From assembly GCA_046563655.1 (NCBI GenBank), contig CM102284.1, positions 8,742,001-8,806,000 on the forward strand: DNA of 64,000 bases. The letters are read 5' to 3'. Positions within the stretch are counted from its first letter, which is position 1. Every line of letters begins with the position of its first letter. The notes below the pieces were generated by a model. That model saw only the letters and a program-made list of their open reading frames with translations. It was not told the DNA's origin and made no database searches. The translations under genes were made by a program, and so were the position numbers. Source of the stretch: Yuukianura sp. NJ FZ-2021 (Eukaryota). Below, piece by piece: positions 29,118-64,000 of the stretch.

Positions 29118-32100
29118 TTAGAATATTACAGGCAGGGCCCTTCGAAAGTCGTTAGACGATGAGGGGGCGGTGGGTGGCTGGGCAGCGGGTGTGGGGTGAA
29201 GGGGCCCATAAGGGCTCTGTGCACTGCCTGGCAGCGGAGGGTGGGAGTACTGAGAGATGTGGGCCAAGGTGGGGCCAGTCCCACCGGACAACCCACCAAC
29301 GTGGTTCAACTGAGAGTAGTAACTGGCCAAGGACGAGAAGTGGGGCGGAAAACCACCGGCAGAAGTCATTGGAGTCCCACCGGACAACAGCCCCACTTGA
29401 TCTTCCGGCGTCCCACGATGACTCAACTGCTGGCCTTTGGGAGCCACCCCGTGGGGCAACTCAGGAGTCCCACCCATGGAATCCTCATGCAAACTGCTCT
29501 TCGGAGACTCAGATTCAGATTTGCTCCCTCCAACTTCATAACGCTCGCTCGCGGTGGGCGTCGACCCTAAAACAAACAAAGTCAAAATTACTAAAACCGA
29601 ATTTGAAACTGCAAAATGTTTCCTTTGTGGTTCAATTGTGAGTTAAACATTCGACAATTCAACAATAATTTATAGTTTTATATTTTACTGTTGAATTAAC
29701 AAATAGTCAATTGAAAAGAGAACAAACACAAGTGTTGAGTGAAACGATGGTTGCGGTGAATCTCGTTAATTCAACAATTCAACATTTTAACAAAAGAAAC
29801 AAGAGTGGAAACTGGAAAGAGTGAAACAGCCTTCATTTGGTGGGTTTGGTGGGGCGAAGTGGGACTCACCGGAGAATGGTTTGGTGGGGCTGGTGGAGTC
29901 AAAGTATCTGGAGGTGGGTGTGTCCAAATAAGACTTGCCCGCTGCCTCCTGCATGTACTTGGCAGCAGCCGCTGCAGCGGCGACCGCTTCTGAAGAGTAC
30001 ATACTTCCGAGTGCTGCTGAGTATCTGTACTTGTCGTCCATTCCGCTGGAGTAGGCCTTCATCGCATCCTGCATTGAAGAAACGACTTGCGGAGACCCAA
30101 AACTAGAGTTGTAAGCACTGTTGTAGTAACTCATCTGAGCAGCAGGCAGACCCGCTGAAATTCAAATTTCAAAATTATGAAAAAATGAATATTTTGAAAC
30201 AGGAAGTCTCAAATTTAAAAAGAGGAAATTGTGGGTTGTGCAATGGAATTTGAGTTTTGTTTTGGATTGTTGCGTCGATTGTTCAAAAAGAGTTGAGAAT
30301 TGACAACTGAAAAGAAGGTGAGAATGAGATTTCTTTTGTTGTCAATTGTGTAAAGACTTTGGATTTTTGGTCCTTAAGTCTACTGGGCCCTTAAGTCTCC
30401 TTGACGTGCAATTAGATGAATCCAGAAGAAAGTAATGACAGTGATTACTCTAACAAACAAACCCCCTTCACACTTCCACACAAAAGAACTCATTACACGA
30501 TAGGAAGACAGTTCCACATTGTCACTATTCACAAAACAACAATAGACTATGACGAGTCTCTGCAAATTCAATCCGGAGTTCAAACTGCAGATTCAAAATT
30601 TTGAGAATTTAAAAATGGAATTCAGAAGTTGGAGAAAGCAGGTGAAAGGTGAAGTTCGTTTTGTGGTTGAACTTTTGTGGCCAAACGGCGTCTCCCGCTG
30701 CTCCGCTGAAAGACTCCGAATGTGGCCAAGGTTTTTGTGTGGAAGTGACAATGGACATGTCCATGACATGGCTCAACCTGCGACAACTCATGTCAACGTC
30801 CACTCCAGAACCTTTTCACTTTAAATCCAAATCCTCCCTCCTCTGTTTGAAATTCTAAAAAAGTGTCATTTGAACAAGCGACTTTTGAAGGAGAATCAAA
30901 GAATGACTGAGCAACTGCTTTTTCTTACGGGGAAAATTCAAACAAAAGAGACAAAGAAATCCAACATTCACACTACACACGAAATTAAGGTTTTCAAAAT
31001 TTAAAAATAAGTGTCATCATTTTCAATTTTGAAAGTTCAAAATTTCATTCCCAAGAAATGCAAGTTTGAGCAGTTTGAAAGAAATGCTGGTTGAGGAATG
31101 TTGCCTGTGCAGTCTAGACTGCGTGGTGCCCAATTCCACGTGGAAACTTGTTCAGAATTTCAAAAAAAAATTCCAAGTTGAAACAACTTTTGAAAAGTTG
31201 TTCTCTGCAAGAAGTGACTCAAATGCTCCGTGTTTCTCTCAATGTCTTGTCGGTTTCTTTGACTTTTGTGTTGGACATAAAGTGATCTGTCCAGTAGAAT
31301 TGTTATGGACGAAGTGTCTTGATGTGTCCATTAGCCAAGGAACCAACTGTACCCTTGGCTTCTGCATTCCAAGGGACTCTCGAGGGGGACTTAAGTGTCA
31401 AGGGCCCTTGGAAAATGAAGCTTCTGAGAAGAGCCAAAAATAGCAAAGGAAATGCAGAATTTGCAGGTGAAATGCCCACGGCCAACTTTCGATTTACGAC
31501 AAACGACATCCGCCCTTGCAACATGACAAATCGATTCAAATCTTGAATTTGACAGAAATCCTGCCAATTTCGAAAAATGAATTTCAAAATTTCAGTTTTT
31601 GATTTTGAAGAAAGTTTATGTTCGAAATGCACCTTGTTCGAAAGGAAGCTGTAAATGAACGGTGCTTCCAAATTGTTTTGTCCTCAATTGAAGAAAACAA
31701 TAAAAAGACAAAAGAGAATTTTATTGTTTTACAACACAGAAGAAATTGAGACAAACGGAAACACTTCTGTTGCTCCGAAAAAGCTTTGAACATTTTCACT
31801 TTGGGTCACAACTGTCGTCACCTTCAAGAAAAATAGCCAAATCACAATCAAAACAAAGTCATTGTTTTCCCAGACCAAGAAAACAAAGATGCTTTGAAGA
31901 TCATTTTGGAAATGATAGAATCCAGTGACAAAGTGGATGATTTATTACAATCCACTTCAAAAAGCATGAAACGAAGGGACGCAGAGGGCCCTTGGCCACT
32001 TTCGAAATTTCGATTCTCACTTCCGCCAATTTCAAAATCAACTTGACAATTTTACGCCTCCTGATCAGACAAAGTGCAAAGTCATCGCAACAACCCACGT

Positions 32101-34215
32101 CAATTCAAACGTCATTTCTCTCCACTCTCAAAATCAACATTCAAAATTTCATTTCGAAAAAGAGAAGCTAAAAAATGCATCACGAGAATTAAAGCTTGCA
32201 GAAATGACAAAAGTTTTATTTTTGGTTGTGCGAAAGATCTCGTGGGAACACCTTTGGCCCAAATGCATTTTAGAAAATCTAAAAAAAGAAGATTTGAACA
32301 AAAGATTGAGGGAGGGAGGAATTGTGTTTAATTGAAAGAATTGGACACAACACGACGATTGGCCATCAATCACCCACAAATGGAATTCCCCCTTCAATTC
32401 AATTCAAAATCACAAGATTCAATTCAAGATCAAAAGATTTCACCCCCTCCATCTTCACCCGCCAAAATTCAAAAATAACTCCAAAGTATTCCAAAGTTCA
32501 AAAATTCAAATTTTGATTTTAGAGTTGGAATGGGAGGTCGAGTGACACGGATTCGGTTGACATTGAATTGTGGAAGTGGTGGACTCATCTCTAGACACTC
32601 GTGTGTTTAAGTGTTGAATGGAGAATGGAGGGAGATTCAAAATAATTGAATTTGGCATTCAATTGCCTATCTCCACGCAGAGATCTTTTTAGCTGGACCC
32701 ATCAATCCAATTGTGAATGACACAAAAGAGACTTTGGGCACTGGATCATTATGGCCAGAAGTTGACATGGAATGACAATGGACATGACAATGCCCCCCTT
32801 CCGGAACAACCTCTTATGAATATTCCCAAAGTGTTTCAGTTTTCAATGTATCACTTTTTCATAAATTAGATTCAGAATCTGCCAGGAACAAACTTTGTCG
32901 TCATTCTTTTGTGGCACAAAAATTGACAATTCCAAAAACAACTTGAAACTTACATGTGTAAAACCAGAAACACAATTCACATGCAGATCAACAGAAATTT
33001 AAACATTCAAACAACAATTGAACATTTCAAGCAATGACAAGGATGCGGAGGGTTGAAAACAGTTGGGAAACAGAACAAAAAAAATCATAATTTCAAAAAA
33101 CAGTTTAAATTGAAAAGTACTTTAAACTATGCATTTTGCAAAATTTTCATTTTTTGCAATTTCTGTTTGCAAAAGACACAAAAGAAACCACGTAAATATT
33201 TGAGTTTGGTTTCAAGCGTGTCTAATTCAACCAGTTTTCTCTGTGCATTGACTTTGTATAGAATTGGAATGCACTTGAATTCAGAAGCAAAGCATTCCAG
33301 AGAGAGGAGCCACGCTGGCTAGAAATCCAAAGATTCAAGGAAGAAGGGGACTTAAGGGCCCCTCTGAATCTCCACAGACTCCGAATTCCAAAAGAAAAAA
33401 GTCAAAGGAAGCGAAGGACCCTCGCAGTTTAAAAAACCAAAACCCCACTGAGCAAAAGTACAACAATTTACACACAAAACTAAAAACACAAAGTACATTG
33501 CAGGACTGCGAAAAGACAGAAATAGTTGCAAAGGTGTGACTGAAATTAAAAGTAAAAAAGTACCTCTGAGAGCGTCCATGGGTACTGAAGGGTACGGGAA
33601 TGAGTAAGGGTACCCCTCCTTCTTAAGGGTCTTGGGCTTCCTGCGTGGTCGGTACTTGTAGTCTGGATGGTCCTTCATGTGCTGGGCCCTTAAGCGCTTC
33701 GCTTCGTCGATGAAGGGCCTCTTCTCGTCCTCCGAAAGCAACTTCCACTCCGCACCCAGGCGCTTGCTGATCTCTGAATTGTGCATCTTCGGATTCTCCT
33801 GCGCAATCTTGCGCCGCTGCATGCGAGACCACACCATGAACGCATTCATCGGACGCTTGATGTGGTCGTCCCCACCCACCAACGAACCCACCACCTCCCG
33901 CCCCACCTTCTTCGGCCCCACCGACCCACCAGGACTCATAGCACACGAAGAGCCAGAGGAAGAGGTGGATGGAGGAGTCAGATGAACTGCCCCACCACTG
34001 TTGCTATGGAGAGAATGGTGGTGGTGGCTCATGGAGTTGAGATGGTGGGACATCAAGTGGGACGCTGATGTTGGGAATGCTTGAGATGCAAGTGACATGA
34101 GTCCTGCCCCACCACTGGCCCCACTTCCGCCCAAATGCGCATGCGACAGTCGCTGACTCAGTTCGTGGTGGCTCAGACGGTGGTGGGAATTGTAGTTCAG
34201 CCCTTCTTCGTTCAT
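29118..34215 (-). CDS. Sox21b: SoxB HMG-box transcription factor, Sox21b/Dichaete-like, copy A (exons 34215-33564, 30154-29870, 29566-29118; 461 aa)
   Basis: HMG box [54 protein letters not shown], then [19 protein letters not shown]-terminal RRALPVIF; exons of 652+285+449 nt splice in frame. Assignment to Sox21b rather than Dichaete is tentative. Confidence 0.9.
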
Positions 34216-35809
34216 CTTTTGAAGAAATTTGAAATTCGGCGGTTGAATTCAAATCTTTTGATTTCGGATGAAATGAATTTGAAAGTCCCGGGGGATGGAG
34301 GGGGAAGTGTTAATTTTTGATTTGCGTGAGGGTGGCTCCGATTCCGAGGTTTCTTGAATTACGCATGTGAATCTATTGTTTGAAATTAATAGAAATTGAG
34401 TTGTTATTCACTTTGTTTGAACAAATAGATCGCTGAAATCAAATCGCTGAAAACAGCGTCCAACTCTCCTTCCACTTTTCTCCAGTCGAGTGTTTGTCCA
34501 CTTTCAAAACTAATTGAATCTCAAGTGTCAATTGATTCACAAAAGAACAGAACTCTTTTCACATTTCAGAAATAACTGCTCTACTTTCCACCGAAAACTG
34601 CAATTTCATCTCAACTTTTTAACTTGGTTGGAAATGGAAGAATTTAAACAGGAATCTGAAAAGTGGACTTTAAGGTTCCGAAAGATTCAAAATTTAAATC
34701 TGCCTTTCGTTCCCACGGTTCAAAAAGTGTTGGGACAGTGACAAATGTTTTCATAAATTAGAATTCAAAAGGAATTAAAATGACTTGCCGCTTAAGTGGA
34801 TTTGATCCTCACAAGAAGCCACTTCACCCAAAAAACTGGTTTTGCACGACTCTGTTCTCACGAAATTCAAAGGAATTTCAAAATTTGAAAAGAAAGTTTA
34901 GACAACTGCACCAATTGCTCAATTGTCACTCGGAAACTACTGTTTTTCACACTTCTGTTTGAACAGACTTTGTTTGAACACAGAGTGAGTTGTTGTGCTG
35001 GTGGTGGCTGGACAATGACTGAAGCAGAGTGGCTTTGGAGTTGGGAGGGAGTGGGAAGGGGTGGGGCCTCCCTCGGCCGATCTCCACCAAAACCCACCGC
35101 AGTTTGGTCCATCGCAGCATCCAAACCAAGATCTGCACAAAAACGCCCCTCACAAACCCCCTCCCTTTTGTTCAACATCTTTGTCTCTCTCCATTCTTCT
35201 CACCAATCAAAAACACATCTTCACTTCATTCCAAAAAACAAAACTCAATTCCAATCGATCCACCAAAATAACACAAATGTTTCAAAATTTCAATTTCCCT
35301 CTTTTTTGAAAATGGCTTTTGTTGAAATTTTGTGATCCTTCTCTTGTGCTTTTGAATTCATTCTTCCATTCTTAACTTTGTTAAAGCGAGAAAGGCAGAA
35401 AAGCAACAATGAAATCCATTACAAGAAGCTTATGCAGAGATCATCTGCTCATGAGGTCAACTGTTGACCTCAGCAACGTAAAATAACGTAACACTCAGAT
35501 TTAACTCAAGCCTGGGTTACAGGACCGCCTGGCAAAAAAAAGGTCCTGGCAAAACAAAATCGTTTTGGCTAGTCAAAACACACGCTAGCAAAACGGTATG
35601 CAAAACTGAAAATGCTAGCTCGCTTTGCCAGGTAGTTTGCCATGCGGTTTACAGGACTTTGCCACCATATGATTTTGGTTGGCAAACTGAGATTACCAGA
35701 ACTCAAAAAAATAATAGGTTAGTTCCATTCTTGATTGTTTAATCAGCTATTGAATTATAAGTACTCGTAGTTGATTAATACATCTAACCTAACTAATAAA
35801 CCAATTATC

Positions 35810-37484
35810 ATGAGTGACGACAGCGACGACGAGAGTTTAATACTCCTGACGGCTGCGACGATTTTGTTAAAGAAAAGAGGGAGATCAGTTAGAAGATCTA
35901 GGGTAAACCCATATCTACGAGATCGGCCAACCAAGGGAAGATATTTCACGGATGTAAGATGCTTTTAAAGATATCGACATAAATATGAAAAATTCAACTT
36001 TCGTAATTAAGTTCTAACCTATCACAGTTTGAAGATATGCGAGCAGCTGAACATACTTTCAAGGAGAATTTTCATATGAGTCCTGTACAATTTGATGATT
36101 TACTTGAATTACTAAGTCCACGACTAACTCCGAAGAAATTATCAAGACCGGATAGTATATCGGCGAGGGAGAAATTAGCAATTACTCTCGAGTAAGTAAT
36201 TGAGTCGTATTATCTAACCTATCGAAATCCAAATTATTTTAAAAGTGAATAAACTCGTTTCCCTTATTTACTAGATTCCTTGCTTCCGGAACCTTTCAAA
36301 GGCATATTGCTTCTTGCTATCGTGTTAGCAAGGCGACTGTCGGGGGCATTATTGAGTCTACATGTCAGGATATCTACGAGATTTTGTCTCAGCAGTTTCC
36401 TAACGTTGGAACAAATAATGGAAATGGGTTAACATAACACTGGATGCTAATTCTCAACTTTTGTATAGGTTAGCTCAGAACGAGAGTGGATACGTCACTC
36501 AAATGAATTCAATTCACTGTGGCAGTTCCCAAACTGTTTAGGAGCTGTCGATGGAAAGCATTGTGCCATCAAATGCCCCCAGAATGCTGGGTCGCTCTTC
36601 TATAATTATAAGGTGACAAGCATCTTTAAACTTGACCTTAAATATAACTAAAATAACCTATATAACCTATAACACACTATGCAACTTAAGTATGAATTAT
36701 TTACAGGGGTTTCATAGCATTGTACTAATGGCCGTAGCCGATGCTCGTTCCCGTTTCACCTACTTTGATGTCGGTGCTTATGGGAGTGAAGGCGACTCTG
36801 CGGTTTTTGCTTCTTCTGGTTTTGGAAAATCGTTAGCTTCGGGAAAACTGAATCTGCCATCAGACCAGAAAGTCTACGGGAAACTCACGCCGTTCGCTTT
36901 TCTCGGCGATGATGCATTTCCCCTTCATAAAAACATACTGAAGCCGTTCAAGCCAGCTAAAAACAAGCCTACTTTGGATATTCCGGAACGAATATTTAAT
37001 TATAGGTTATACAAACCTAATTTTTGAATGCGCTTGTTTATCGAATAGGTTAGTAACTACAGTACCTGAGCTAACCTATTTTCTGTATAGACTCAGCAGA
37101 GCTAGGCGGTGCGTGGAAAATGCATTCGGTGTGATGTGCTCGAGATGGCAATGTCTGGCCCGAACAATGTTTCTCAACCCAGAAAAAGCTCAAAAAGTTA
37201 TAGCCGCCTGCTGCCTCCTACACAACTGGTTGATGCAAGACAGAGAAACGTATTGTCCCCCTGGCTTTATGGACACATATGATAACGATGGAAATCTTGT
37301 ACCCGGCAGTTTTCGGCAAATCCTTCCAACCGACTCCTTATTCCACGCTTCGGTTCCTCAGCCGAGTAGGTCCTGTGGAAGGCCACCCGCAGACCCTCTA
37401 AAGCAACGTGACCACTTGAAAGCCTTCTTTAATTCGTCCGAGGGCGAAGTGGAATGGCAAAAACAATCAATTTTTGTTGGATGA
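35810..37484 (+). CDS. Harbinger DDE transposase (HARBI1/DDE_Tnp_4 type), 6 exons, apparently intact
   Basis: Spliced translation gives FKENFHMS, EKLAITLEFLASG, FPNCLGAVDGKH, YNYK|GFHSIVLMA, FLGDDAFPL, FNYR|LSRARRCVENAFG; no internal stop found. Confidence 0.92.
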
Positions 37485-37608
37485 ATTTAACATTCTGAAT
37501 TTATGATTACTTTTAATAGGTTAGGTGCTATTCTGGTAGTAATGAATGAGTATAGTTGGCTTGTCTAATTTAATAATAAAGAAAAGCTAACCTATGTGCT
37601 ACTGCTGT

Positions 37609-38796
37609 CTATTCGTGGTAAAAAACTGTCGTTCCCTCATACTCTTTCAACGTACTGTGTGTGGCAGTGAGGATCTGCATATTTAGATCCTCAACAACAT
37701 GCTCAGGAAGTTTTTTCCACATTCGATCTAGGTTAGCAAACATTGAGTGGTACTTGAGTGACGAAGGCGTTGTCTGTGTGTCATCTGAAGTTTTTACAGT
37801 TTGAAGTTGATGCCTCTTAAGTTCCACAAAATTTGACAAGGATTCGGCCAACTTCTCTGACGTGTCCGCTTTGCGTTTGCGAGATGCCTGATGAAAGTTA
37901 CAGATAACTTTAATTATCTAACCTATGTAATACTAGAACGCTATATGGTTACTTACAAAAGCGTAAACTGGAGTAGAAGTAGAATCGGTTTTACGAGGCG
38001 GAGCGTTCTGCTGTGTCGATTGTCCAGGCTCAGATGGAGATGCCAAAGTTTGTAAAGAATTCTGGGAACATTCCTGGTCTACGTCGAATAGGCCAATTTC
38101 GTCAGGGGTGTTTGGAGGAGAATATTCAGTATCGACAGAATCAAGCGTCCTAATAGTACAGACGGGATATTTAACGTGATTATTAGACGTTATAGCATTT
38201 GGTCGATAGGTTAGGTTCAGGTAGGTTAGGCTAACCTTCGGGCCGGTTTAGATTCAAGAAGGAACTTCATTTCCTCCCATAACTCCCAGTCTGTGTTCGA
38301 TTCGGTTGTGGTAGCTTCGTCGTTGTCATTCGTTCCATCGTCCAGTTCAGCCGGTTCACCGGATTTGCCCTTCTTCTTCTTGTTTGACTTGTTCCGATAT
38401 CGTAGGCATTGACGCATAGACCTCCAGGCGCGCTTGCAGTCAGACTCTGCAAAGTAGAAAAAATAGGTTATTATTTTAGAACAAAGAAAAACAATCGGAA
38501 ATAAATAAGCTAAACGAGGTTTTGGTTCGTATATGCACTCGGATTCTAATAAATAACTACTAACCTATGCTGCGTGTATCTTCGGTAAAGACTACAGTTA
38601 TGATTTTATTTTTATACTTACCCGATTCGGATAATGTCCTTGCCACTGATTCCCAGGCAGCTGTTTGAGCTAAATTATTCTGATGATCACCGCTAGTGAG
38701 ATCCCATAAGCAGGGAAATGACCTGACTTGTCTTGCTAGGTCTCTTTTCTTGTCAGTGTCAAACGATTTCAGTGAACCTGTTTCCTTTTTCCCCAT
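37609..38796 (-). CDS. MADF (Myb/SANT-like) DNA-binding protein of the Harbinger element, 4 exons
   Basis: VRSFPCLWD..HQN...AWESVA..|ESDCKRAWRSMRQCLRY (MADF Trp pattern); W..WEEMKFL motif; BESS-like C-terminal helices; exons join in frame. Confidence 0.88.
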
Positions 38797-41700
38797 ATTA
38801 ATCGGTTAGAACCACTGCACAGGATAATGAAAGAATAATAATTGACAAACTTCTAAGACTATTCTAATTTCTAATCTATCGTAGTTCTATCAAATCAACA
38901 AAAATAATACTTTAATTATTGGGTCAATTTCAAAATTTACAAATTTCGCGGGATGATTTTGCTTTGCCTAGCCAAAAATAATGTCCGGGTAGTTTCTCGA
39001 TTTTGCTAGCAAAAAGAAGTGTTTTTTTGCGTAGGCAAAGGTTTTGGCTAGCAAAAGCGTGTAACGTGTAAACTGTGTGGCAAAATCTCAAACACGCGCA
39101 TGGCAAAATGACCGATTTTGCCAGCATGCGTGTATTGCCTAGGCAAAACTCTGTCCTGTAAACCGGGCTTCAAGGAATCCATTTCAAATATTCAACTATT
39201 AACTCAAGTTTGAAATATTTTATATTTCAATTTATGTTTTCACCGATTTCGAGTTATGATTGCCATGAATTGGTTCAACTGAAGAGAGATTTTGACAGAT
39301 TGGAGTGATTTAAACGAAACTGAGGCTGATTGTGTCCAATTTCAAGAGGAATTTGATGAGAGGGAGATTGGATTCAGTTGCCAAAGGATTGTGGATCAAG
39401 GGCCCTCCATCAACCAACGGAATCCACAATTCCAGTGGAATGGCAACAAAAGACAATCCATAATCCACAATCCACACTCGAATTAAACACTCCACCAATC
39501 ACATGCTCCAATCACATCTCGATCCACTTGAAACAAAATACAAGATTAACCACAAGACATTTAGAATTACACAAAGTATATTTTTAAAAAACAGAACAAG
39601 AATGTTGAGTTTGTTCCAGGTGAGTTAATCCACAGAGGGAAAAATAAGCTTAGAAATTCCACTTGGATGGAACAACAAAAGCAAAAAAGTGGATCTTTTG
39701 AAGAGTCTAAATTATGTTTAATAAAATTAGGATTCAAAGGACCCCTTAAACCCCATTTTCAAAGGGACCCTTAAGGGAACTTTGTTATTTGTGTCTTTTG
39801 TCATTTGATTTAAGCCCTCTGTAGCCAACGCTTTTGAATCCAACACAAAGAACAAGTCTCATGTATTTCCAAAATGGACACTCAAAGGACCAACAAAAAA
39901 TTACACGCAGGTTTCCATTTCTACCGAATTCGCAACGAAATTCAAAATTTTGAAAGTTCCCGCCATTTTGTTGTGGAGTCACGCTGTCTGGTGGGTTTAG
40001 AAGGAAGTTTGAATGGAAGTGTGATGTTTGCTGAATTGTTTTGGACAAAGGTGCTCTGTTCCCCGTGACAAAGGACGATCACATTCTGGGACACTGAAGT
40101 CCCTTAAGGGCCCATTGAGGCCCTTACAAAGACTGGACACACTACAGCATTAGCCTCACTGGCACAATTGACATGAAGAACCGAAGCTAAATGGCAAAGA
40201 CCCAGTGGGACACAAAGGGCCCTCTTATTTATTTTTGAAAAATCCAAGGGAGGGGGCCCTTCGAAGGTGATTCTCTGCAGAATCTTTTGAATTTGGAACA
40301 AAAGCGGAGACACATGAGGTGAAAAGGCCCTTTGTGTAAAGAGAGATCACAAATCCATTCAAAAGACGAGGGAACAACTGCAGCTTCCGCCTCACTTCAA
40401 CCCGCATTACACTCAAACACACTGCAAATCACGATCTGCAAAATTTCACTCGGGAATTTCAAATTGCAAGCATCAGTGAAGGAATTGCAGCACAATTTGG
40501 AGAAAGTTGAGAGAAAGTTTTCACTTTTTGTGAATTAAAAATGGAGTCGGTGGGAACCGTTGAACTTTGAATTGAATTTTTTCCCGGGTGAATTCAAACT
40601 GAGACTGAAAATACCCGGGAGTTTTTCCTCCTTCGACCTGAACCCATCATCTCTTTGTTGAGTTAACAATGCGAGAGAGATGCATTAGGAGAGAATGGAT
40701 GTTGGATGGACATTTGAAAGAGAGGCTAATGGACCCCACAAAAGAAAATCCAAATGGAAACACAATCAATCGAATCTCCAAATTCCAAAACACAAATCAA
40801 AATATGAGCTGCTTTTTTTTAAAAAACACTCACCTTTCAATTTTGAAATTTCAGAAAGTGTGTTTTAAAATTCCAACGTTGAAATGGAACTTGTCTTTCC
40901 TATTTTAGTCTTGTGAGTGTTTGATAAGTTTGCAAAATGAGAGAAAAGAAAGCAGAAGCTGAATGAGGTGGAGATTGGTGTTAATTGAAGTTTCGCTTAA
41001 TTAACTTTTGTTCACTTTTAATTAACTCGCAATTCAACAATTCCCGCTTTCTTGCGGAATTCAAAGACTTTGGACTGAGATTGTGTGGAATTAAGAATTA
41101 AGTGGGCTTTTCACACCTCTAATTACAAAGACTTCCACTGGACTTACAATGGAGTTTCAGAGGGAAATTCAAAGTTTCATTTGGGGGGACTTTGATTCGA
41201 AAGGAAGTTTGGAGAGGCCCTTGAAGTGCCCCCTGCCTCTTCCTTTGCTCCAGTAATTGAGACAACCATCTTCCGAGGGGCCATTGTTCTCCACACAACT
41301 TCCAAGACAATCCCACCTCTGAAACAAAGCAGCCACCACCCACCGCCCCGCCTCAAACTAAACACATCGTGTAATGGGAAATACACACAGCATATGGAAA
41401 ACAATAGACAGCATGTGGGTCAAATCACGACAAAACACACGCCAGATGCAGAGACAAAGAAAACAATTTACACAGAAATTACTTCTTTCGTGGATCAGAA
41501 TCCAAAGTTCACACTTTCCCTCTAATGAGAAAATTTGAGTCAAAGGGCCCAGGTACCTTCAAGGGTACTTCCAAGGGCCCTTAGATGCACAAAAGAAAAG
41601 CAATGTCCATTTGACTCCTTTGTTTTCTCTTTCGAATCAAAAGAAAAGGTGTGATTTAATTCAAATGCAAAAGAAGCATCTTCAACTGCATCTGCATTCT

Positions 41701-50670: not shown

Positions 50671-50836
50671 TGTCCTTTGTGAGTACTTTGCCCGAGGGGG
50701 CCCTTGGAAGTGTCCCAGCCAGCTTGGCGTCGTTGTTTTTTTGGAGGGACTTAAGGAAGAGGTCACTGGAGGAATGTGACCTTTGTTTAGGATCTTTGTC
50801 AAAGGGACTAATCGGCCCTTAAGGGCTCTTACAACT
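50671..50836. promoter_or_regulatory. Conserved non-coding element, right copy (candidate enhancer)
   Basis: Mirror of 45375-45541. Confidence 0.6.
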
Positions 50837-51643: not shown

Positions 51644-54600
51644 TGCATCCAGACAACTGCACCCTCCACAAAACTAACCGTGCGAGACGCCCTTCAGACC
51701 ATCAAGGTTCGACGGAGGGAGTCAAACAATCGAATCCACTTAAAACAAAATCTGATTACAATTTAAGAAAAGTTGAAACTAAAAAGATTTCGAAATTCCT
51801 CCAGAACAACTTAGATCAAAATGTTTTTGGATTTTGAAATCTGCAGACTGAAATTGAGAATGTTGTGAGTTTTTGATATGAAGGATGCTGGAGATAAATG
51901 GCTGTTGGGATGAAGTGGAGTCTGGACTGACATGACAGCCCATTTAACACACGATACACGCCAACATTCACTTCACATCAAAGCATTAGTGCTTTTTATG
52001 AACAAAAAACACAAAAGATTTGAGTTTTGGCGGTGAAAGCGATGGACGAATCAGAAGAGAGAGAAGAAAGAAGAGAATCTTCCGCAGAGTTGAATTGATT
52101 TAATTGGAATTTTCTTCTGCAGAACAAAACTAATTTTATGAATTCCACTTTTGTTCTTCTTTGGAAAGTTCTGCGCTGGGTTTTGTTTTTTGAAACAAAA
52201 GAATCAACTCAAATTTTAAACTTTGAATTATGGTTTTGCATGAAAGGAAAAGTTTTTGAACTTTTGTTTACGAAAAGGAAAATTCTGTTTGGATTCGAAA
52301 GTTTTCCATTTCATTTCATTCTTCTGCTTTCTCTTTTCTCCAAAGTTAAGAAATTTGAAAAGCGAAGGTCATTGTGATTAACTTTTGAAAATTCCCTCAC
52401 TTTGGTTCGGTGGATTCGAATGGATTGTGGATTCGAATGGATTGTGGATTCGAATGGATTGTGGACTTTCTCTTTCTTCCTCCGATGGACTTTGTGTGGA
52501 ATTCAGAAGATGAAGAATGGAATGTTTTATTTCTTTTCTGGATTTTCCAAAACTTTTCTCTTTTCTGCTAACTTTTGCATCGAAAGTCCATAAATCCTTC
52601 TTTCCTTGTTTTCCAACTTTTCTGAACTTTGTTTGAACAACAATGGACACACAAACTAAATTTTCTTGCTCCCAAGCACCTTTTTCAAACAGAATGAATT
52701 TATGTTGCTTTCTTTAACTTTGTTCAGAAGAAAGTCCAACTTCCAGAACCAGTTTTTTGAAAAACGTCTGAGCAGTTTCGTTTTTTGAAGATTGAAATTG
52801 AGATACATTTTGAATGTTTAGTGTGTTTTTTGGATTCGGTTGATGGAGTGTCCTTCACTTGTGATTGTCATTGTTATGGTTGAATTAAGGAAGAATTGGA
52901 ATTGTGTCCATTGTGGGAAGACCATCCTGACACAATTCATTTTTCATTTGAATTCAAATGAAACAGTGTCCACTGTGACCTCTGGATGACCTTCCATTCC
53001 AAGTGACACTCTCTGTTGGTGGCCACTTTCATCTCTCCCGAAATCACCATTCTCACGATTCCAAAATTCCAGAAGGGAAATGCGTCTTTCCAAAAAAAAA
53101 AAAAAATATGAAATCAACTTCAAAAATGAACTGAAAATTTTTATGACGGTTGTACAACACCGAACTGGGAAAAACTACTTTCTCTTTTCCCAAGAATATT
53201 TTTGAAAATATTTTGTTGTTTTTTGTGTGAACGGAGGAATTTGAGGAATGCGTGGGAAAATCCGTGGGATTCTTTTGGTTTCTGCTGAGAGTTGAAGTGT
53301 TATTTTTGAGTTCCCTCCGAAGTCCCCCCTCCGAATGTTCTTTTGGGGGGTACTTAATTACGTAATCAGAATTAAGTGTCCAGAAAGAGTCCACTCAAGC
53401 AGAATGCACTTTCAACAGTCAAGTGGAACAAACGACCAGCATTTCCACGGTTCCTTTGCTCACTTCACCTTCCGATCTTCGTCTTTTTGCATTCGAAATC
53501 ACAACAGCCCTTCAAGGGCCCACTCCAAGACTTTTCAAATTCAAAAGTCTTTTGGAGGTTCAACTGGAAGTGAACAAGAGTTCCCATCGGAAGCAACGTC
53601 CAAATTTCATGGAGCTTTTGATTGTAAATTATGCTTGACCTTTGACCTTTTTCCACTTTTTTTAAAAAGTGTTTTGTGATTGGATTAAATTGTGGATTGT
53701 GTCAGACATAATCAAGGTGGATTGTGTTTAAATGAATAATCGTCCTTAAGGGCCTCTAAGTGTCCCTTGGCAGCAAAGCAGGTGGAAAATGGAATTAAGG
53801 TGACAGTCCCCTTCAGGTCAAACTGTCAACGATCTCTCCGGAGGTCAAAGGTCAACTATGTCAAGGTCACCATGTTCAGAACATGCTATCTTTTAACTTG
53901 GAGTAAAAATCGTTTAATTTGAATTTGGCTGTCTTGTGCTGTTTTCCGTGCTTGACGAGTGTATTGGTAATAAATCATTTCTTCCGTCTCCGCTCTCTGC
54001 GTGGAATTTGAGTGAAAGCGGAGAAAGTGCTTCCATTCTCTTCTTCTGCTCGTCGCTTGACAGGATGAAATGTCGCCAAATTCATATTTCAAATTTCCCC
54101 GCCTGACACTTTTCAATTTATTAAGGCTGTCTCCCGCCTAAACACTGGACGCACCGATTCTACCCGCTTTTCGGATTCTGCAAAATCATCCACTCACTTT
54201 CGTCACCCCTTCAAACTTACATCTTGTTCACTTCAAAAGTAAATGTTGAGTTTGCAGTCGATTTGCCGCTTTCTGTCGAATTCTGAGGAATGGAGTGTCG
54301 TTAGTTTTGTGTCAAGGGTCAAGGGACCCTTCGTCTGCATTTAAGTGACAGATTGGTCCACTTGACAAAACCGAATTTCGGTTTTGTAACAATTCCCGCC
54401 TTTCTCTCTGTGTCATCCGAATGTCCAATCAGAAGTGGAGATGAATTGTGAGCGGAGAGTGACATTCGTTGTGCTTTTGTTGTGACAGAGTGCATCTTTT
54501 CTTCCTAAAATCCAAAATGACTGAAATTTATGGATCCAATGAATGTTATTACATAAGTGATTTGGAGTTGAAGGGACGCAGGGCGTGGCTAAGGGCCCCC

Positions 54601-57600
54601 CTGGAAATCCATAAGTTCTGTTTTCTGTTTTGGGGAAACAGTTTCTCATAAAGTGGATTCAGTTTCAATTGAGTGGATCAACAATGAAACCAAACGCATT
54701 AGTCTCACACTCTTTTCTTTTCAATGCTTCCACCAACTGCACATTCATTTCAAACACATTTCCACTTTTTCAAAAAAAAAAGTTTCAAAATTTCAGTTTT
54801 GATTCCGAGCTAACTGCATTGTGGATTAAAGCCCTTGATGGAGTGTGTGAATGCCTGGGGCAGTTTCACACAGAATGCAGATGCAGTTGAAGATGCTTCT
54901 TTTGCATTTGAATTAAATCACACCTTTTCTTTTGATTCGAAAGAGAAAACAAAGGAGTCAAACGGACATTGCTTTCTTGTGTGGATCTAAGGGCCCTTGG
55001 AAGTACCCTTGAAGGTACCTGGGCCCTTTGACTCAAATTTTCTCATTAGAAGGAAAGTGTGAACTTTGGATTCTGATCCACGAAAGTAATTTCTGTGTGA
55101 ATTGTTTTCTTTGTCTCTGCATCTGGCGTGTGTTTTGTCGTGATTTGACCCACATGCTGTCTATTGTTTTCCATATGCTGTGTGTATTTCCCATTACACG
55201 ATGTGTTTAGTTTGAGGCGGGGCGGTGGGTGGTGGCTGCTTTGTTTCAGAGGTGGGATTGTCTTGGAAGTTGTGTGGAGAACAATGGCCCCTCGGAAGAT
55301 GGTTGTCTCAATTACTGGAGCAAAGGAAGAGGGGCACTTCAAGGGCCTCTCCAAACTTCCTTTCGAGTCAAAGTCCCCCCAAATGAAACTTTGAATTTCC
55401 CTCTCAAACTCCAATTGTGAGTCCAGTGGAAGTCTTTGTAATTAGAGGTGTGAAAAGTCCACTTAATTCTTAACTCCGCACAATCTCAGTCCAAAGTCTT
55501 TGAATTCCGCAAGAAAGCGGGAATTGTTGAATTGCGAGTTAATTAAAAGTGAACAAAAGTTAATTAAGCGAAACTTCAATTAACACCAATCTCCACCTCA
55601 TTCAGCTTCTGCTTTCTTTTCTCTCATTTTGCAAACTTATCAAACACTCGACATACTAACTTGGAATGACAGGTTGCATTTCAAGGTTGGAATTTTAAAA
55701 CACTTTTTCTAAAATTTCAAAATTGAAAGGTGAGTCTTTTTTTAAAAAAAAAGTTGCTCATATTTTGATTTGTGTTTTGGAATTTGGAGATTCGATTGAT
55801 TGTGTTTCCATTTGGATTTTCTTTTGTGGGGTCCATTAGCCTCTCTTTCAAATGTCCATCCAACATCCATTCTCTCCTAATGCATCTCTCTCGCATTGTT
55901 AACTCAACAAAGAGGTGGGGGATTCAGGTCGCAAGAGAAAAAACTCCCGGGTATTTTCAGTCTCAGTTTGAATTCACCCGGGAAAAAATTCAATTCAAAG
56001 TTCAACGGTTCCCACCGACTCCATTTTTAATTCTCAAAAAGTGAAAACTTTCTCCGAACTTTCTCCAATTTGTGCTGAAATTCTTTCAATGTTATTTAAA
56101 ATTTGAAACTCCCGCGTGAAATTTTGCAGATCGTGATTTGCAGTGTGTTTGAGTGTAATGCTGGTTGAAGTGAGGCGGAAGCTGCAGTTGTTCCCTCGTC
56201 TTTTGAATGGATTTGTGATCTCTCCTTCACAAAGGGCCTTTTCACCTCATGTGTCTCCGCTTTTGTTCCAAATTCAAAAGATTCTGCAGAGAATCACCTT
56301 TGAAGGGCCCCCTCCCTTGGATTTTTCAAAAATAAATAAGAGGGCCCTTTGTGTCCCACTGGGTCTTTGCCATTTAGCTTCGGTTCTTCATGTCAATTGT
56401 GCCAGTGAGGCTAATGCTGTAGTGTGTCCAGTCTTTGTAAGGGCCTCAATGGGCCCTTAAGGGACTTCAGTGTCCCAGAATGTGATCGTCCTTTGTCACG
56501 GGGAACAGAGCACCTTTGTCCAAAACAATTCAGCAAACATCACACTTCCATTCAAACTTCCTTCTAAATCCACCAGACAGCGTGACTCCACAACAAAATG
56601 GCGGGAACTTTCAAAATTTTGAATTTCGATGCGAATTCGGTGGAAATGGAAACTCGCGTGTAATTTTTTGTTGGTCCTTTGAGTGTCCATTTTGGAAATA
56701 CATGAGACTTGTTCTTTGTGTTGGATTCAAAAGCGTTGGCTACAGAGGGCTTAAATCAAATGACAAAAGACACAAATAACAAAGTTCCCTTAAGGGTCCC
56801 TTTGAAAATGGGGTTTAAGGGGTCCTTTGAATCCTAATTTTATTAAACATAATTTAGACTCTTCAAAAGATCCACTTTTTTGCTTTTGTTGTTCCATCCA
56901 AGTGGAATTTCTAAGCTTATTTTTCCCTCTGTGGATTAACTCACCTGGAACAAACTCAACATTCTTGTTCTGTTTTTTAAAAATATACTTTGTGTAATTC
57001 TAAATCTCTTGTGGTTAATCTTGTATTTTGTTTCAAGTGGATCGAGATGTGATTGGAGCATGTGATTTGAGTGTTTAATTCGAGTGTGGATTGTGGATTA
57101 TGGATTGTCTTTTGTTGCCATTCCACTGGAATTGTGGATTCCGTTGGTTGATGGAGGGCCCTTGATCCACAATCCTTTGGCAACTGAATCCAATCTCCCT
57201 CTGATCAAATTCCTCTTGAAATTGGACACAATCAGCCTCAGTTTCGTTTAAATCACTCCAATCTGTCAAAATCTCTCTTCAGTTGAACCAATTCATGGCA
57301 ATCATAACTCGAAATCGGTGAAAACATAAATTGAAATATAAAATATTTCAAACTTGAGTTAATAGTTGAATATTTGAAATGGATTCCTTGAGTTAAATCT
57401 GAATGTTACGTTATTTTAATTTGCTGAGGTCAACAGTTGACCTCTTCAGCAGATGATTTCTGCATAAGCTAGCTTCAGTCGAAGCAATTCTTGTCCATCC
57501 TGATTCCAAATCGGTGAAAACATAAAATAAAACTTGTAATATATGAACCTTGAAAATGGAGATTAGCATTTTCAAAGTTGGTTTCAAATTTTCAAGTTGG

Positions 57601-60600
57601 TTAAAGTTTGAGTGCTAAGTTGGTTGACATTGCTAATGTCAACAGTTGAACTTTGACCTCTTCAGCAGATGATCTCTGCATAAGCTTCTTGTAATGGATT
57701 TCATTGTTGCTTTTCTGCCTTTCTCGCTTTAACAAAGTTAAGAATGGAAGAATGAATTCAAAAGAACAAGAGAAGGATCACAAAATTTCAACAAAAGCCA
57801 TTTTCAAAAAAGAGGGAAATTGAAATTTTGAAACATTTGTGTCGTTTTGGAGGAATCGATTGAAAAAGAGTTTTGTTTTTTGGAATGAAGTGAAGATGTG
57901 TTTTTGATTGGTGAGAAGAATGGAGAGAGACAAAGATGTTGAACAAAAGGGAGGGGGTTTGTGAGGGGCGTTTTTGTGCAGATCTTGGTTTGGATGCTGC
58001 GATGGACCAAACTGCGGTGGGTTTTGGTGGAGATCGGCCGAGGGAGGCCCCACCCCTTCCCACTCCCTCCCAACTCCAAAGCCACTCTGCTTCAGTCATC
58101 GTCCAGCCACCACCAAGTCAACTACTCATAGTTTGTTCAAACAAACTCTGTTCAAACAGAAGTGTTAAAAACAGTAGTTTCCGAGTGACAATTGAGCAAT
58201 TGGTGCAGTTGTCTAAACTTTCTTTTCAAATTTTGAAATTCCTTTGAATTTCGTGAGAACAGAGTCGTGCAAAACCAGTTTTTTGGGTGAAGTGGCTTCT
58301 TGTGAGGATCAAATCCACTTAAGCGGCAAGTCATTTTAATTCCTTTTGAATTCTAATTTATGAAAACATTTGTCACTGTCCGAACTTTTTTGAACCGTGG
58401 GAACGAAAGGCAGGTTTAAATTTTGAATCTCTCAAAATCTGAAACTCCACTTTTCAGATTCCTGTTTAAATTCTTCCATTTCCAACCAAGTTTAAAGTTG
58501 AGATGAAATTGCAGTTTTCGGTGGAAAGTAGAGCAGTTATTTCTGGAATGTGAAAAGAGTTCTGTTCTTTTGTGAATCAATTGACACTTGAGATTCAATT
58601 AGTTTTGAAAGTGGACAAACACTCGACTGGAGAAAAGTGGAAGGAGAGTTGGACGCTGTTTTCAGCGATTTGATTTCAGCGATCTATTTGTTCAAACAAA
58701 GTGAATAACAACTCAATTTCTATTAATTTCAAACAATAGATTCACATGCGTAATTCAAGAAACCTCGGAATCGGAGCCACCCTCACGCAAATCAAAAATT
58801 AACACTTCCCCCTCCATCCCCCGGGAATTTTCAAATTCATTTCATCCGAAATCAAAAGATTTAAATTCAACCGCCGAATTTCAAATTCCTTCAAAAGATG
58901 AACGAAGAAGGACTAAACTACAATTCCCACCACCGTCTGAGCCACCACGAACTGAGTCAGCGACTGTCGCATGCGCATTTGGGCGGAAGTGGGGCCAGTG
59001 GTGGGGCAGGACTCATGTCACTTGCATCTCAAGCATTCCCAGCATCAGCGTCCCACTTGATGTCCCACCATCTCAACTCCATGAGCCACCACCACCATTC
59101 TCTGCACAGCAACAGTGGTGGGGCAGTTCATCTGACTCCTCCATCCACCTCTTCCTCTGGCTCTTCGTGTGCTATGAGTCCTGGTGGGTCGGTGGGGCCG
59201 AAGAAGGTGGGGCGGGAGGTGGTGGGTTCGTTGGTGGGTGGGGACGACCACATCAAGCGTCCGATGAATGCGTTCATGGTGTGGTCTCGCATGCAGCGGC
59301 GCAAGATTGCGCAGGAGAATCCGAAGATGCACAATTCAGAGATCAGCAAGCGCCTGGGTGCGGAGTGGAAGTTGCTTTCGGAGGACGAGAAGAGGCCCTT
59401 CATCGACGAAGCGAAGCGCTTAAGGGCCCAGCACATGAAGGACCATCCAGACTACAAGTACCGACCACGCAGGAAGCCCAAGACCCTTAAGAAGGAGGGG
59501 TACCCTTACTCATTCCCGTACCCTTCAGTACCCATGGACGCTCTCAGAGGTACTTTTTTACTTTTAATTTCAGTCACACCTTTGCAACTATTTCTGTCTT
59601 TTCGCAGTCCTGCAATGTACTTTGTGTTTTTATTTTTGTGTGTAAATTGTTGTACTTTTGCTCAGTGGGGTTTTGGTTTTTTAAACTGCGAGGGTCCTTC
59701 GCTTCCTTTGACTTTCTGTTGGAATTTCCTCTGTGGAGATTCAGAGGGGCCCTTAAGTCCCCTTCTTCCTTGAATCTTTGGATTTCTAGCCAGCGTGGCT
59801 CCTCTCTCTCTGGAATTCTTTGCTTCTGAATTCAAGTGCATTCCAATTCTATACAAAGTCAATGCACAGAGAAAACTGGTTGAATTAGACACGCTTGAAA
59901 CCAAACTCAAATATTTACGTGGTTTCTTTTGTGTTTCTTGCAAACAGAAATTGCGAAAAAATGAGAATTTCCAAAACGCATAGTTTACAGTACTTAGTAG
60001 ATGAAACTATTTTTTGAAATTATGATTTTTTTTTGTTCTGTTTCCCAACTGTTTTCAACCCTCCGCATCCTTGTCATTGCTTGAAATGTTCAATTGTTGT
60101 TTGAATGTTTAAATTTCTGTTGATCTGCATGTGAATTGTGTTTCTGGTTTTACACATGTAAGTTTCAAGTTGTTTTTGGAATTGTCAATTTTTGTGCCAC
60201 AAAAGAATGACGACAAAGTTTGTTCCTGGCAGATTCTGAATCTAATTTATGAAAAAGTGATACATTCCTCCTTTCTAAACTGAAACACTTTGGGAATATT
60301 CATAAGAGGTTTCGGCGGAAGGGGGGCATTGTCATGTCCATTGTCATTCCATGTCAACTTCTGGCCATAATGATCCAGTGCCCAAAGTCTCTTTTGTGTC
60401 ATTCACAATTGGATTGATGGGTCCAGCTAAAAAGATCTCTGCGTGGAGATAGTCAATTGAATGCCAAATTCAATTATTTTGAATCTCCCTCTACTTGGAT
60501 CTCCATTCAACATTTAACACACGAGTGTCTAGAGATGAGTCCACCACTTCCACAATTCAATGTCAACCGAATCCGTGTCACTCGACCTCCCATTCCAACA

Positions 60601-63600
60601 CTAAAATCAAAATTTGAATTTTTGAACTTTGGAATACTTTGGAGTTATTTTTGAATTTTGGCGGGTGAAGATGGAGGGGGTGAAATCTTTTGATCTTGAA
60701 TTGAATCTTGTGATTTTGAATTGAATTGAAGGGGGAATTCCATTTGTGGGTGATTGATGGCCAATCGTCGTGTTGTGTCCAATTCTTTCAATTAAACACA
60801 ATTCCTCCCTCCCTCAATCTTTTGTTCAAATCTTCTTTTTTTAGATTTTCTCAAATGCATTTGGGCCAAAGGTGTTCCCACGAGATCTTTCGCACAACCA
60901 AAAAAAAACTTTCGTCATTTCTGCAAGCTTTAATTCTCGTGATGCATTTTTTAGCTTCTCTTTTTCGACATGAAATTTTCGAATGTTGATTTTGAGAGTG
61001 GAGAGAAATGACGTTTGAATTGACGTGGGTTGTTGCGATGACTTTGCACTTTTTCTGATCAGGAGATTAAAAATTGTCAAGTTGATTTTTAAATTGGCGG
61101 AAGTGAGAATTGAAATTTCGAAAGTGGCCAAGGGCCCTCTGCGTCCCTTCGTTTCATGCTTTTTGAAGTGGATTGTAATAAATCATCCACTTTGTCACTG
61201 GATTCTATCATTTCCAAAATGATCTTCAAAGCATCTTTGTTTTCTTGGTCTGAGAAAACAATGACTTTGTTTTGAGTGTGATTTGGCTGTTTTTCTTGAA
61301 GGTGACGACAGTTGTGACCCAAAGTGAAAATGTTCAAAGCTTTTTCGGAGCAACAGAAGTGTTTCCGTTTGTCTCAATTTCTTCTGTGTTGTAAAACAAT
61401 AAAATTCTCTTTTGTCTTTTTATTGTTTTCTTCAATTGAGGACAAAACAATTTGGAAGCACCGTTCATTTACAGCTTCCTTTCGAACAAGGTGCATTCGG
61501 AACATAAACTTTCTTCAAAATCAAAAACTGAAGTTTTGAAATTCATTTTTCGAAATTGGCAGGATTTCTGTCAAATTCAAGATTTGAATCGATTTGTCAT
61601 GTTGCATGTCGTTTGTCGTAAATCGAAAGTTGGCCCTGGGCATTTCACCTGCAAATTCTGCATTTCCTTTGCTATTTTTACTCTTCTCAGAAGCAGCTTA
61701 ATTTTCCAAGGGCCCTTGACACTTACGTCCCCCTCGAGAGTCCCTTGGAATGCAGAAGCCAAGGGTTCAGTTGGTTCCTTGGCTAATGGACACATCAAGA
61801 CTCCGTCCATAACAATTCTACTGGACAGATCACTTTATGTCCAACACAAAAGTCAAAGAAACCGACCAGACATTGAGAGAAACACGGAGCATTTGAGTCA
61901 CTTCTTGCAGAGAACAACTTTTCAAAAGTTGTTTCAACTTGGAATTTTTTTTGAAATTCTGAACAAGTTTCCACGTGGAATTGGGCACCACGCAGTCTAG
62001 ACTGCACAAGCAACATTCCTCACCAGCCATTTCGTGGAACTGCTCAAACTTTCATTTTTTGGGAATGTGAACTTTCAAAATTGAAAAAGATGACACTTAT
62101 TTTTAAATTTTGAAAACCTTAATTTCGTGTGTAGTGTGAATGTTGGATTTCTTTGTCTCTTTTGTTTGAATTTTCCCCGTAAGAAAAAGCAGTTGCTCAG
62201 TCATTCTTTGATTCTCCCTTCAAAAGTCGCTTGTTCAAATGACACTTTTTTAGAATTTCAAACAGAGGAGGATTTGGATTTAAAGTGAAAGGGTTCTGGA
62301 GTGGACGTTGACATGAGTTGTCGCAGGTTGAGCCATGTCATGGACTTGTCCATTGTCACTTCCACACAAAAACCTTGGCCACATTCGGAGTCTTTCAGCG
62401 GAGCAGCGGGAGACGCCGTTTGGCCACAAAAGTTCAACCACAAAACCAACTTCACTTTCACCTGCTTTCTCCAACTTCTCAATTCCATTTTGCAGTTTTC
62501 GAAATTTTGAATCTGCAGTTTGAATTCCGGAGTTGAATTTGAGATTTGCAGAGACTCGTCATAGTCCATTGTTGTTTTGTGAATAGAACAATGTGGAACT
62601 GTCTTCCTATCGTGTAATGAGTTCTTTTGTGTGGAAGTGTGAAGGGGGTTTGTTTGTTAGAGTAATCACTGTCATTACTTTCTTCTGGATTCATCTAATT
62701 GCACGTCAAGGAGACTTAAGGGCCCAGTAGACTTAAGGACCAAAAATCCAAAGTCTTTACACAATTGACAACAAAAGAAATCTCATTCTCACCTTCCTTT
62801 CAGATGTCAATTCTCAACTCTTTTTCAACAATCGACGCAACAATCCAAAACAAAACTCAAATTCCATTGCACAACCCACAATTTCCTCTTTTTAAATTTG
62901 AGACTTCCTGTTTCAAAATATCCATTTTTTCATAATTTTGAAATTTGAATTTCAGCGGGTCTGCCTGCTGCTCAGATGAGTTACTACAACAGTGCTTACA
63001 ACTCTAGTTTTGGGTCTCCGCAAGTCGTTTCTTCAATGCAGGATGCGATGAAGGCCTACTCCAGCGGAATGGACGACAAGTACAGATACTCAGCAGCACT
63101 CGGAAGTATGTACTCTTCCGAAGCAGTCGCCGCTGCAGCGGCTGCTGCCAAGTACATGCAGGAGGCAGCGGGCAAGTCTTATTTGGACACACCCACCTCC
63201 AGATACTTTGACTCCACCAGCCCCACCAAACCATTCTCGGGTGAGTCCCACTAAGCCCCACCAAACCCACCAAATGAACGCTGTTTCTCTCTTTCCAGTT
63301 TCCACTCTTGTTTCTTTTGTTAAAATGTTGAATTGATGAATTAACGAGATTCACCACAACCACCGTTTCACTCAACACTTGTGTTTGTTCTCTTTTCAAT
63401 TGACTATTTGTTAATTCAACAATAAAATATAAAACTATAAATTATTGTTGAATTGTCGAATGTTTAACTCACAGTTGAACCACAAAGGAAACATTTTGCA
63501 GTTTCAAATTCGGTTTTAGTAATTTTGACTTTGTTTGTTGTAGGGTCGACGCCCACCTCAAGCGAGCGTTATGAAGTTGGAGGGAGCAAATCTGAATCTG

Positions 63601-63989
63601 AGTCTCCGAAGAGCAGTTTGCATGAGGATTCCATGGGTGGGACTCCTGAGTTGCCCCACGGGGTGGCTTCCAAAGGCCAGCAGTTGAGTCATCGTGGGAC
63701 GCCGGAGGATCAAGTGGGGCTGTTGTCCGGTGGGACTCCAATGACTTCTGCCGGTGGTTTTCCGCCCCACTTCTCGTCCTTGGCCAGTTACTACTCTCAG
63801 TTGAACCACGTTGGTGGGTTGTCCGGTGGGACTGGCCCCACCTTGGCCCACATCTCTCAGTACTCCCACCCTCCCCTGCCAGGCAGTGCACAGAGCCCTT
63901 ATGGGCCCCTTCACCCCACACCCGCTGCCCAGCCACCCACCGCCCCCTCATCGTCTAACGACTTTCGAAGGGCCCTGCCTGTAATATTT
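51644..63989. repeat. Right arm of the giant inverted repeat (about 12.3 kb)
   Basis: Reverse complement of 29121-44925 without the Harbinger and with an extra ~215 bp at about 57470-57685. Confidence 0.97.
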
Positions 63990-63992
63990 TGA
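58898..63992 (+). CDS. Sox21b: SoxB HMG-box transcription factor, Sox21b/Dichaete-like, copy B (exons 58898-59549, 62956-63240, 63544-63992; 461 aa)
   Basis: Same exon lengths as copy A, intact splice sites, identical HMG box, three amino-acid differences found (T/A, A/S, P/S); stop TGA. Confidence 0.9.
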
Positions 63993-64000
63993 AAAACGAA

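Follow-up and report, generated by a model that had tools for sequence, protein, structure and literature searches.

Two head-to-head Sox21b-type genes in the arms of a large inverted repeat on a Yuukianura contig

The window analysed here, i.e. the whole stretch of 64,000 nucleotides taken from contig CM102284.1 of Yuukianura sp. NJ FZ-2021, carries a large inverted repeat, each arm of which holds one intact gene related to the SoxB developmental regulators. The left arm (29122-44928) is the reverse complement of the right arm (51641-63988), as found by both a repeat finder and self-BLAST, and the two arms surround a spacer whose centre is a 5.1-kb single-copy core. A preliminary description made from the same sequence had placed the arms at 29121-44925 and 51644-63989, which agrees with these limits within 3 nt; the inverted repeat that it described is confirmed as present in the sequence. 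It had also described the mirroring as extending through the introns and about 7 kb of upstream DNA, and self-BLAST and MAFFT alignments indeed follow the reverse complementarity through both. No second inverted pair of similar size was found by self-BLAST in the 64-kb window.

The left gene lies on the minus strand and comprises exon 1 (33564-34215, with the ATG at 34215), exon 2 (29870-30154) and exon 3 (29118-29566, ending with a TAA stop codon at 29118-29120). The right gene lies on the plus strand, with exon 1 at 58898-59549, exon 2 at 62956-63240 and exon 3 at 63544-63992, the last one ending with a TGA stop codon at 63990-63992. Both spliced models have three exons, all splice sites are GT-AG, and both encode proteins of 461 aa that differ by three residues only (T49A, A318S and P355S), the same size and the same number of differences as previously described. 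At the nucleotide level, the coding sequences differ at 15 of 1,386 positions, stop codon included (TAA vs TGA). The two genes are head to head and divergently transcribed, with a distance of 24.7 kb from ATG to ATG. In both copies, the HMG box is complete, uninterrupted and located in exon 1, with the same protein sequence, and its match to PF00505 is full-length (positions 1-69 of 69, E=1.1e-28).

The HMG box is 90-98% identical to those of arthropod SoxB proteins. The best full-length matches come from springtails, the first being a protein of Allacma fusca (P0002; 392 bits, 96% of the model covered), whose alignment is colinear across both exon junctions. The match to a Folsomia candida protein (P0004) reaches 379 bits and covers only 75% of the model. 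The window proteins end with ...RRALPVIF, and an RRxLxVIF-like tail occurs in 76 of the 120 protein matches, including P0055 (named Sox21b by its source), P0075, P0092 and P0110; the tail of the F. candida protein is ...RRALPVLF. The terminal 30 aa are described as conserved in the accessible part of PMC1166547. With these matches and a tail of the type seen in proteins named Sox21b, the window gene is, on sequence grounds, assigned as an orthologue of Sox21b (SoxB2), closest to springtail proteins, and not of Dichaete. The earlier label of 'Sox21b/Dichaete-like' genes therefore stands for its first half, SoxB2 genes of Sox21b type, and not for Dichaete. As a side observation, the top-scoring match (P0001), a 467-aa Culicoides model named 'SOX-5-like', has two HMG boxes; two adjacent SoxB genes seem to have been fused in this prediction, which inflates its score against the query.

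Self-BLAST aligns the arms as two blocks. In the outer one, positions 29122-35460 of the left arm pair with 63988-57653 of the right arm (96.8% identity over 6,373 aligned columns, gaps counted), and in the inner one, positions 39170-44928 pair with 57391-51641 (96.8% over 5,790 aligned columns, gaps counted). Re-alignment of both blocks with MAFFT gives 11,755 matches and 272 mismatches (2.26% of 12,027 columns), with 47 gap events that represent 131 letters. The arms are of unequal lengths, 15.8 kb for the left one and 12.3 kb for the right one, because 3,659 bp are found only in the left arm (35511-39169) and 216 bp only in the right arm (57437-57652).

Homology extends inwards beyond the limits of the arms. 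In a more sensitive comparison, 45018-45241 resembles 51629-51410 at 70% identity, within degenerate inner parts of the left arm (44929-45374) and of the right arm (50837-51640). The innermost inverted block, of 167 bp, is far better conserved, its left copy (45375-45541) matching its right copy (50671-50836) at 97%. Between these copies lies the unique core (45542-50670), which is asymmetric and single-copy in the window: neither self-complementarity nor another copy of it was found there. None of the ten spacer ORFs tested (eight inside the core and two overlapping the innermost repeat blocks) has a Pfam match, and no Rfam family or tRNA was found in the 5.1-kb core. The window contains no N, and hence none between the arms.

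The 3,659-bp piece private to the left arm is a transposon of PIF/Harbinger type, located 1.3 kb upstream of the left ATG. Its ORFs match DDE_Tnp_4 (PF13359; E=4e-9 and 1e-8), its termini match each other in inverted orientation over 18 nt (16 identities), and TCAAG is present at both of its flanks while a single TCAAG occurs in the right arm, which thus carries a precise empty site. The insertion is therefore clean. The 216-bp piece private to the right arm adjoins this empty site. The differences between arms had previously been described as scattered SNPs and small indels only; this holds for the 272 substitutions and the 47 small indels and fails for these two private insertions.

Divergence between the arms is lowest in the coding exons (13 of 1,382 aligned columns, 0.8-1.1%) and reaches 2.6% in intron 1 (88 of 3,377), 3.3% in intron 2 (10 of 303) and 2.2-2.7% in the upstream DNA; the differences occur over the entire length of the arms. 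The coding differences include 11 synonymous and three nonsynonymous ones, giving a dS of 0.035, a dN of 0.0028 and a dN/dS of 0.08, and this dS is close to the divergence of introns and upstream DNA (2.2-3.3%). Purifying selection thus acts on both proteins.

All these features are best accounted for by a young segmental duplication, in inverted orientation, of the entire Sox21b locus, real and without strong homogenisation, a reading that we hold to be the better one with some reserve. The duplicated unit would take in the coding exons together with the two introns and no less than 7 kb of DNA upstream, arranged around the 5.1-kb single-copy core. Inverted duplications with a spacer usually arise from fold-back or template-switch errors in replication, and such an error may be the origin of this one. 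After the duplication, the arms would have diverged at a roughly neutral rate and gained private indels, including the PIF/Harbinger-type transposon upstream of the left copy, both proteins being presumably kept intact by purifying selection ever since. Both arms would lie on one chromosome in the animal, and both copies may be expressed, with redundant or additive functions as Sox21b.

At the outer limits of the duplication, homology ceases 1-3 nt past the stop codons, and the right stop codon is followed by just 8 nt of window. A true boundary falling 12 nt short of the window end would be a very unlikely accident, and the right arm should not be said to end at its stop codon. More likely, the end of the window or contig truncates the right arm, its outer edge lying beyond view, or else the mismatch at the edge would correspond to a small indel within a palindrome of more than 35 kb. 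It is thus conceivable, if tentative, that the duplication is real and the palindrome far larger, the right arm continuing past the window and mirroring the left flank below 29122, with the observed edge being a local indel. Besides the improbability of a boundary so close to the window end and the shortness of the sequence available for comparison beyond the right stop codon, a stretch of about 22-27 nt is locally duplicated in tandem on the left side, precisely where homology is lost, which could shift the alignment. Against such an extension, only three of the outermost 12 paired positions match, and one contig derived from sequencing reads (run X1, see below) ends exactly at 63988, as would be expected at a branch point; neither this end nor the mismatch is decisive. 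An exact-match scan of the last 29 nt of the window against the metagenome contigs yielded no stretch.

Whether the two copies coexist in one genome or are alleles of a single gene can be addressed using contigs assembled from sequencing runs. Four runs contain the region, all as Logan contigs, which were placed on 44001-64000 of the window. Three of them (X1 to X3) come from one sample and one study, possibly the own source of the assembly, and the fourth (X4) comes from a second study with another organism label. The individual contig pieces considered below are the 32 listed out of 2,096; as the other 2,064 are unlisted, the parts left uncovered (e.g. 48114-48634 and 50700-51077) carry no weight. 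The junction between spacer and right arm (51640|51641) is bridged by X2 record 11 (51366-51785, without any difference) and by X3 record 17 (51077-51678), and the junction between the left inner repeat block and the core (45541|45542) is bridged by X2 record 9, X3 record 15 and X4 record 22.

Depth also differs between arms and spacer. In X1, the median word depth is 605 in 18 arm bins vs 313 in nine spacer bins (1.93x, p=0.0007), and in X3, it is 90.6 in arm bins vs 53.6 in spacer bins (1.69x, p=0.0003). The same trend is seen for the single contigs listed, with 343-438 in the arm vs 216-246 in the spacer for X1, and 69-84 vs 31-40 for X3. Furthermore, the spacer is biallelic in X1, as sites 47358, 50085 and 51254 carry both letters (124-168 vs 142-260), and X3 spacer records 15 and 16 are 14 and 30 letters off the window. 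A spacer with two alleles cannot be a hemizygous segment present at half depth; with arms at about twice the depth of such a spacer, there would therefore be about two arm copies per spacer copy. If the arms were two alleles, the depth of the arm contigs would stay within the spacer total, whereas a true duplication is expected to give a ratio of 1-2x, as observed. The preliminary description had proposed that arms at half the spacer depth, together with an absence of long reads reaching from the spacer to both outer flanks, would point to misjoined alleles; the arms are not at half depth in these contigs, where word depth is 1.7-1.9x that of the spacer with both arms summed. Globally, the contig evidence argues, although indirectly, against two misjoined alleles, and a real duplication, whatever its exact extent and later history, appears likely.

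The joints and loose ends found in the contigs at 46294-46313, 53106, 54790, 55738, 60019 and elsewhere were rejected as rearrangements, as they fall on A/T runs or low-complexity sequence and are taken as de Bruijn cross-links; similarly, the X4 joint between opposite strands (44164<->52444) merely links homologous points of the two arms. Six 'other letters' listed in the arm might have indicated extra haplotypes, but five of them equal the left-arm letter and the sixth lies at an indel: these letters are left-arm contigs placed on the right arm. One X1 contig bypasses the 216-bp piece (joint 57436->57653), and X1 record 5, which lacks both the transposon and this piece, was rejected as a third arm haplotype, given that a k-mer contig can switch haplotypes.

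In X4, the depth over 58-64 kb compared with that of the spacer (7.6 vs 4.75) is too low for use. This run shows another peculiarity: contigs 95-97% similar to 52005-57910 (5.9 kb of right-arm upstream DNA) reach word depths of 47-194 (median 109), compared with only about 5-8 over the spacer and 58-64 kb, and head-to-tail joints connect 57910 to 55738 and 55332 to 54350, one breakpoint being on an A/T run. The segment 52005-57910 may thus be a multi-copy or tandem repeat in the X4 genome; no such excess is seen in X1 to X3.

The chief alternative to a real duplication is an assembly artefact, i.e. a heterotype false duplication in which the arms would be two alleles of a single-copy Sox21b, joined in inverted orientation near a contig end. 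Several points speak for it and weigh against a duplication in the animal. The divergence of 2.26% between arms falls in the range of the allelic differences seen in spacer contigs of the same sample (about 0.9-1.9% substitutions), and a large private transposon is typical of allelic polymorphism too. The right arm stops within the last 12 nt of the window, as would be expected of a fold-back at a contig end. Among the contig pieces listed, none bridges the junction between left arm and spacer (44928|44929), and none connects the core with both arms over kilobases. In X2, the excess of arm depth is not significant (362 in arm bins vs 216 in spacer bins, 1.67x, p=0.065), and the ranges for the single contigs listed overlap (64-283 in the arm, 126-309 in the spacer). 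More generally, summed word depth does not equal copy number, and X1 to X3 are not independent of the assembly. It has also been cautioned, in the accessible parts of PMC7953838 and PMC5916493, that some palindromes may be assembly products, and PMC9516828 describes, as far as its accessible text goes, false duplicates on the same scaffold.

The case described in that text of PMC9516828 is similar to the present one in that two copies lie on one scaffold, differ at about the level of heterozygosity and allow a gene to be counted as a 'gene gain'. It differs in other respects. Two of the four hallmarks given there were examined, and neither is seen: no N, and hence no gap, separates the copies, and the depth of the arms is not half that of adjacent single-copy DNA. 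The copies are, moreover, inverted around a unique core. An artefact would have to explain how a 5.1-kb asymmetric core came to adjoin the same repeat at both of its ends, in opposite orientation and with junctions found in k-mer contigs, the centre of the structure being this core and not a hairpin turn. It would also have to deal with a biallelic spacer and with an arm depth of 1.7-1.9x when the contigs of both arms are summed. An artefact is thus unlikely, with a weight that is still far from negligible, and a real duplication remains the preferred reading.

The preliminary description had gone further by viewing the locus as a self-correcting mirrored pair maintained by conversion between arms. 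Since dS is close to intron divergence and since the differences are spread along the arms, a self-correction in the style of Y-chromosome palindromes is unsupported, and the retention of the 3.66-kb private transposon speaks in the same direction. The noncoding differences are over-dispersed (index of dispersion of 3.06 over 42 bins of 250 columns, p=1.6e-10), and some of these bins hold just 0-1 differences; this could result from uneven constraint, from alignment of low-complexity sequence or from short conversion tracts. A real palindrome with arms actively homogenised by gene conversion, in which a dosage-sensitive regulator is kept as a self-correcting pair, would find some backing in a geometry that permits hairpin pairing, in this patchiness and in the near identity of the two proteins, but it is improbable given an identity by substitutions of 97.7% vs the near-100% of Y palindromes, identical runs that never exceed 525 bp (the longest one lying in the constrained HMG-box exon and the second longest being of 350 bp), a dS no lower than intron or upstream divergence, the persistence of both private insertions, an over-dispersion that uneven constraint or low-complexity alignment would produce just as well, and the lack of support for concerted evolution of F. 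candida palindromes in the accessible part of PMC5490193. The broadest version, that of a palindrome real and fixed, with copies driven by a shared divergent control region of 25 kb around the 5.1-kb core, a patchy divergence due to short-tract conversion and palindromes recurrent in springtails that would here have captured a regulator of segmentation and neural development, is hardly more than a long shot, and the 'shared regulatory core' and the dosage role of the palindrome that had been proposed are conjecture.

Outside the inverted repeat, the left flank holds genes unrelated to Sox21b. Two plus-strand segments, 924-1445 and 2802-3215, correspond to exons of a glycosyl hydrolase of family 20, hexosaminidase-like (PF00728, E=1e-38 and 1e-12), positions 1871-2090 are occupied by a 35-bp tandem repeat, and positions 6670-7023 by a trypsin-like fragment (PF00089, E=2.5e-7). 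Three tandem paralogous ORFs follow on the minus strand (7854-8399, 9486-10079 and 11203-11763; 181-197 aa), with DNA sequences 77-86% similar, each of them ending with ...FHLVPG.HHFHLN.PELVAPIINNFL, and represent a local three-fold duplication of a gene or exon; the one ORF of this trio (7854-11763) that was tested has no Pfam match. Further on, an 887-aa open frame on the minus strand (18511-21174) consists almost entirely of 35-aa (105-bp) tandem repeats (...LLEEKSGLEAELLSTKTLLESVQSVNEESIQKI...) and would encode a coiled-coil-like repeat protein; the ORFs beside it, at 15160-18069, are likewise coiled-coil-like. Between this gene and the left Sox21b, the sequence from 22000 to 28000 is AT-rich (GC of 0.32-0.34 vs about 0.40 elsewhere) and devoid of any long ORF.

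If the duplication is real, a developmental regulator of the SoxB group would have been duplicated very recently and in full, its regulatory DNA included and in mirror orientation. It would provide a natural experiment on dosage tolerance and on the early divergence of paralogues, as a transposon already sits 1.3 kb upstream of the ATG in one of the copies. One more gene-bearing palindrome would thereby be added to those of springtails, a group in which a link between such structures and the mode of reproduction has been drawn. Should it prove an artefact, the locus would be a clean case of false gene gain, one that annotation pipelines could count as a Sox expansion. A new mechanism is shown in neither case: subject to confirmation by long reads, the locus would be a further example of the already known gene-bearing inverted duplications.

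Among known systems, the palindromes of primate Y chromosomes (Rozen et al. 2003, as reported in parts of citing papers) share with the present structure inverted arms, a unique spacer and intact genes in the arms. Here, however, the arms diverge by 2.26%, they carry private insertions at the kilobase scale and show no sign of long conversion tracts, and the window gives no evidence of a non-recombining region. The analogy is therefore limited to geometry, the near identity that characterises Y palindromes not being found here.

As for the gene itself, the insect Sox21b of the Dichaete-Sox21b-Sox21a cluster, as depicted in the accessible part of PMC1166547, resembles the window gene by its group B HMG box, its multi-exon organisation and its C-terminal tail (...RRxLxVIF). 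The same text reports that, in the Sox21b of four insects, the HMG box is split in its middle by a conserved intron. By contrast, neither window copy has an intron inside the HMG box, intron 1 being placed after ...DALR, 30 aa past the box. Springtails and insects may differ in this respect; the lack of such an intron lowers the case for an insect-type Sox21b structure, not that for orthology. Furthermore, neither Sox21a nor Dichaete is found within the 64-kb window, in which tblastn detects only two HMG boxes; the cluster neighbours of Sox21b in Anopheles and Apis are given in that text as 80-110 kb away, i.e. farther than the window reaches. The Sox21b duplicates of spiders reportedly bear the names Sox21b-1 and Sox21b-2. 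They are described in the accessible part of PMC6307133; the window duplicates are nearly identical and adjacent, in contrast to such old, diverged paralogues.

The closest precedent comes from F. candida, for which gene-bearing palindromes have been reported (PMC5490193, re-counted in PMC7953838, both for the parts accessible). No literature joining Sox21b with Collembola was found, supplements excluded, and the supplementary palindrome lists of these two papers might include a Sox gene; the window protein is distinct from the F. candida protein P0004, which covers only 75% of it. According to the accessible text, the F. candida palindromes were detected as colinear blocks of several genes in a parthenogenetic species, whereas each arm of the Yuukianura repeat holds a single gene and identity at the nucleotide level is 97.7% through introns and intergenic DNA. 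Both cases nevertheless belong to the same animal group, as judged here from the best protein matches, and both consist of inverted duplications within a single scaffold whose genes are intact. In F. candida, too, concerted evolution is unsupported, the palindromes spanning a wide range of Ks, and they are the nearest known counterpart of the Sox21b pair.

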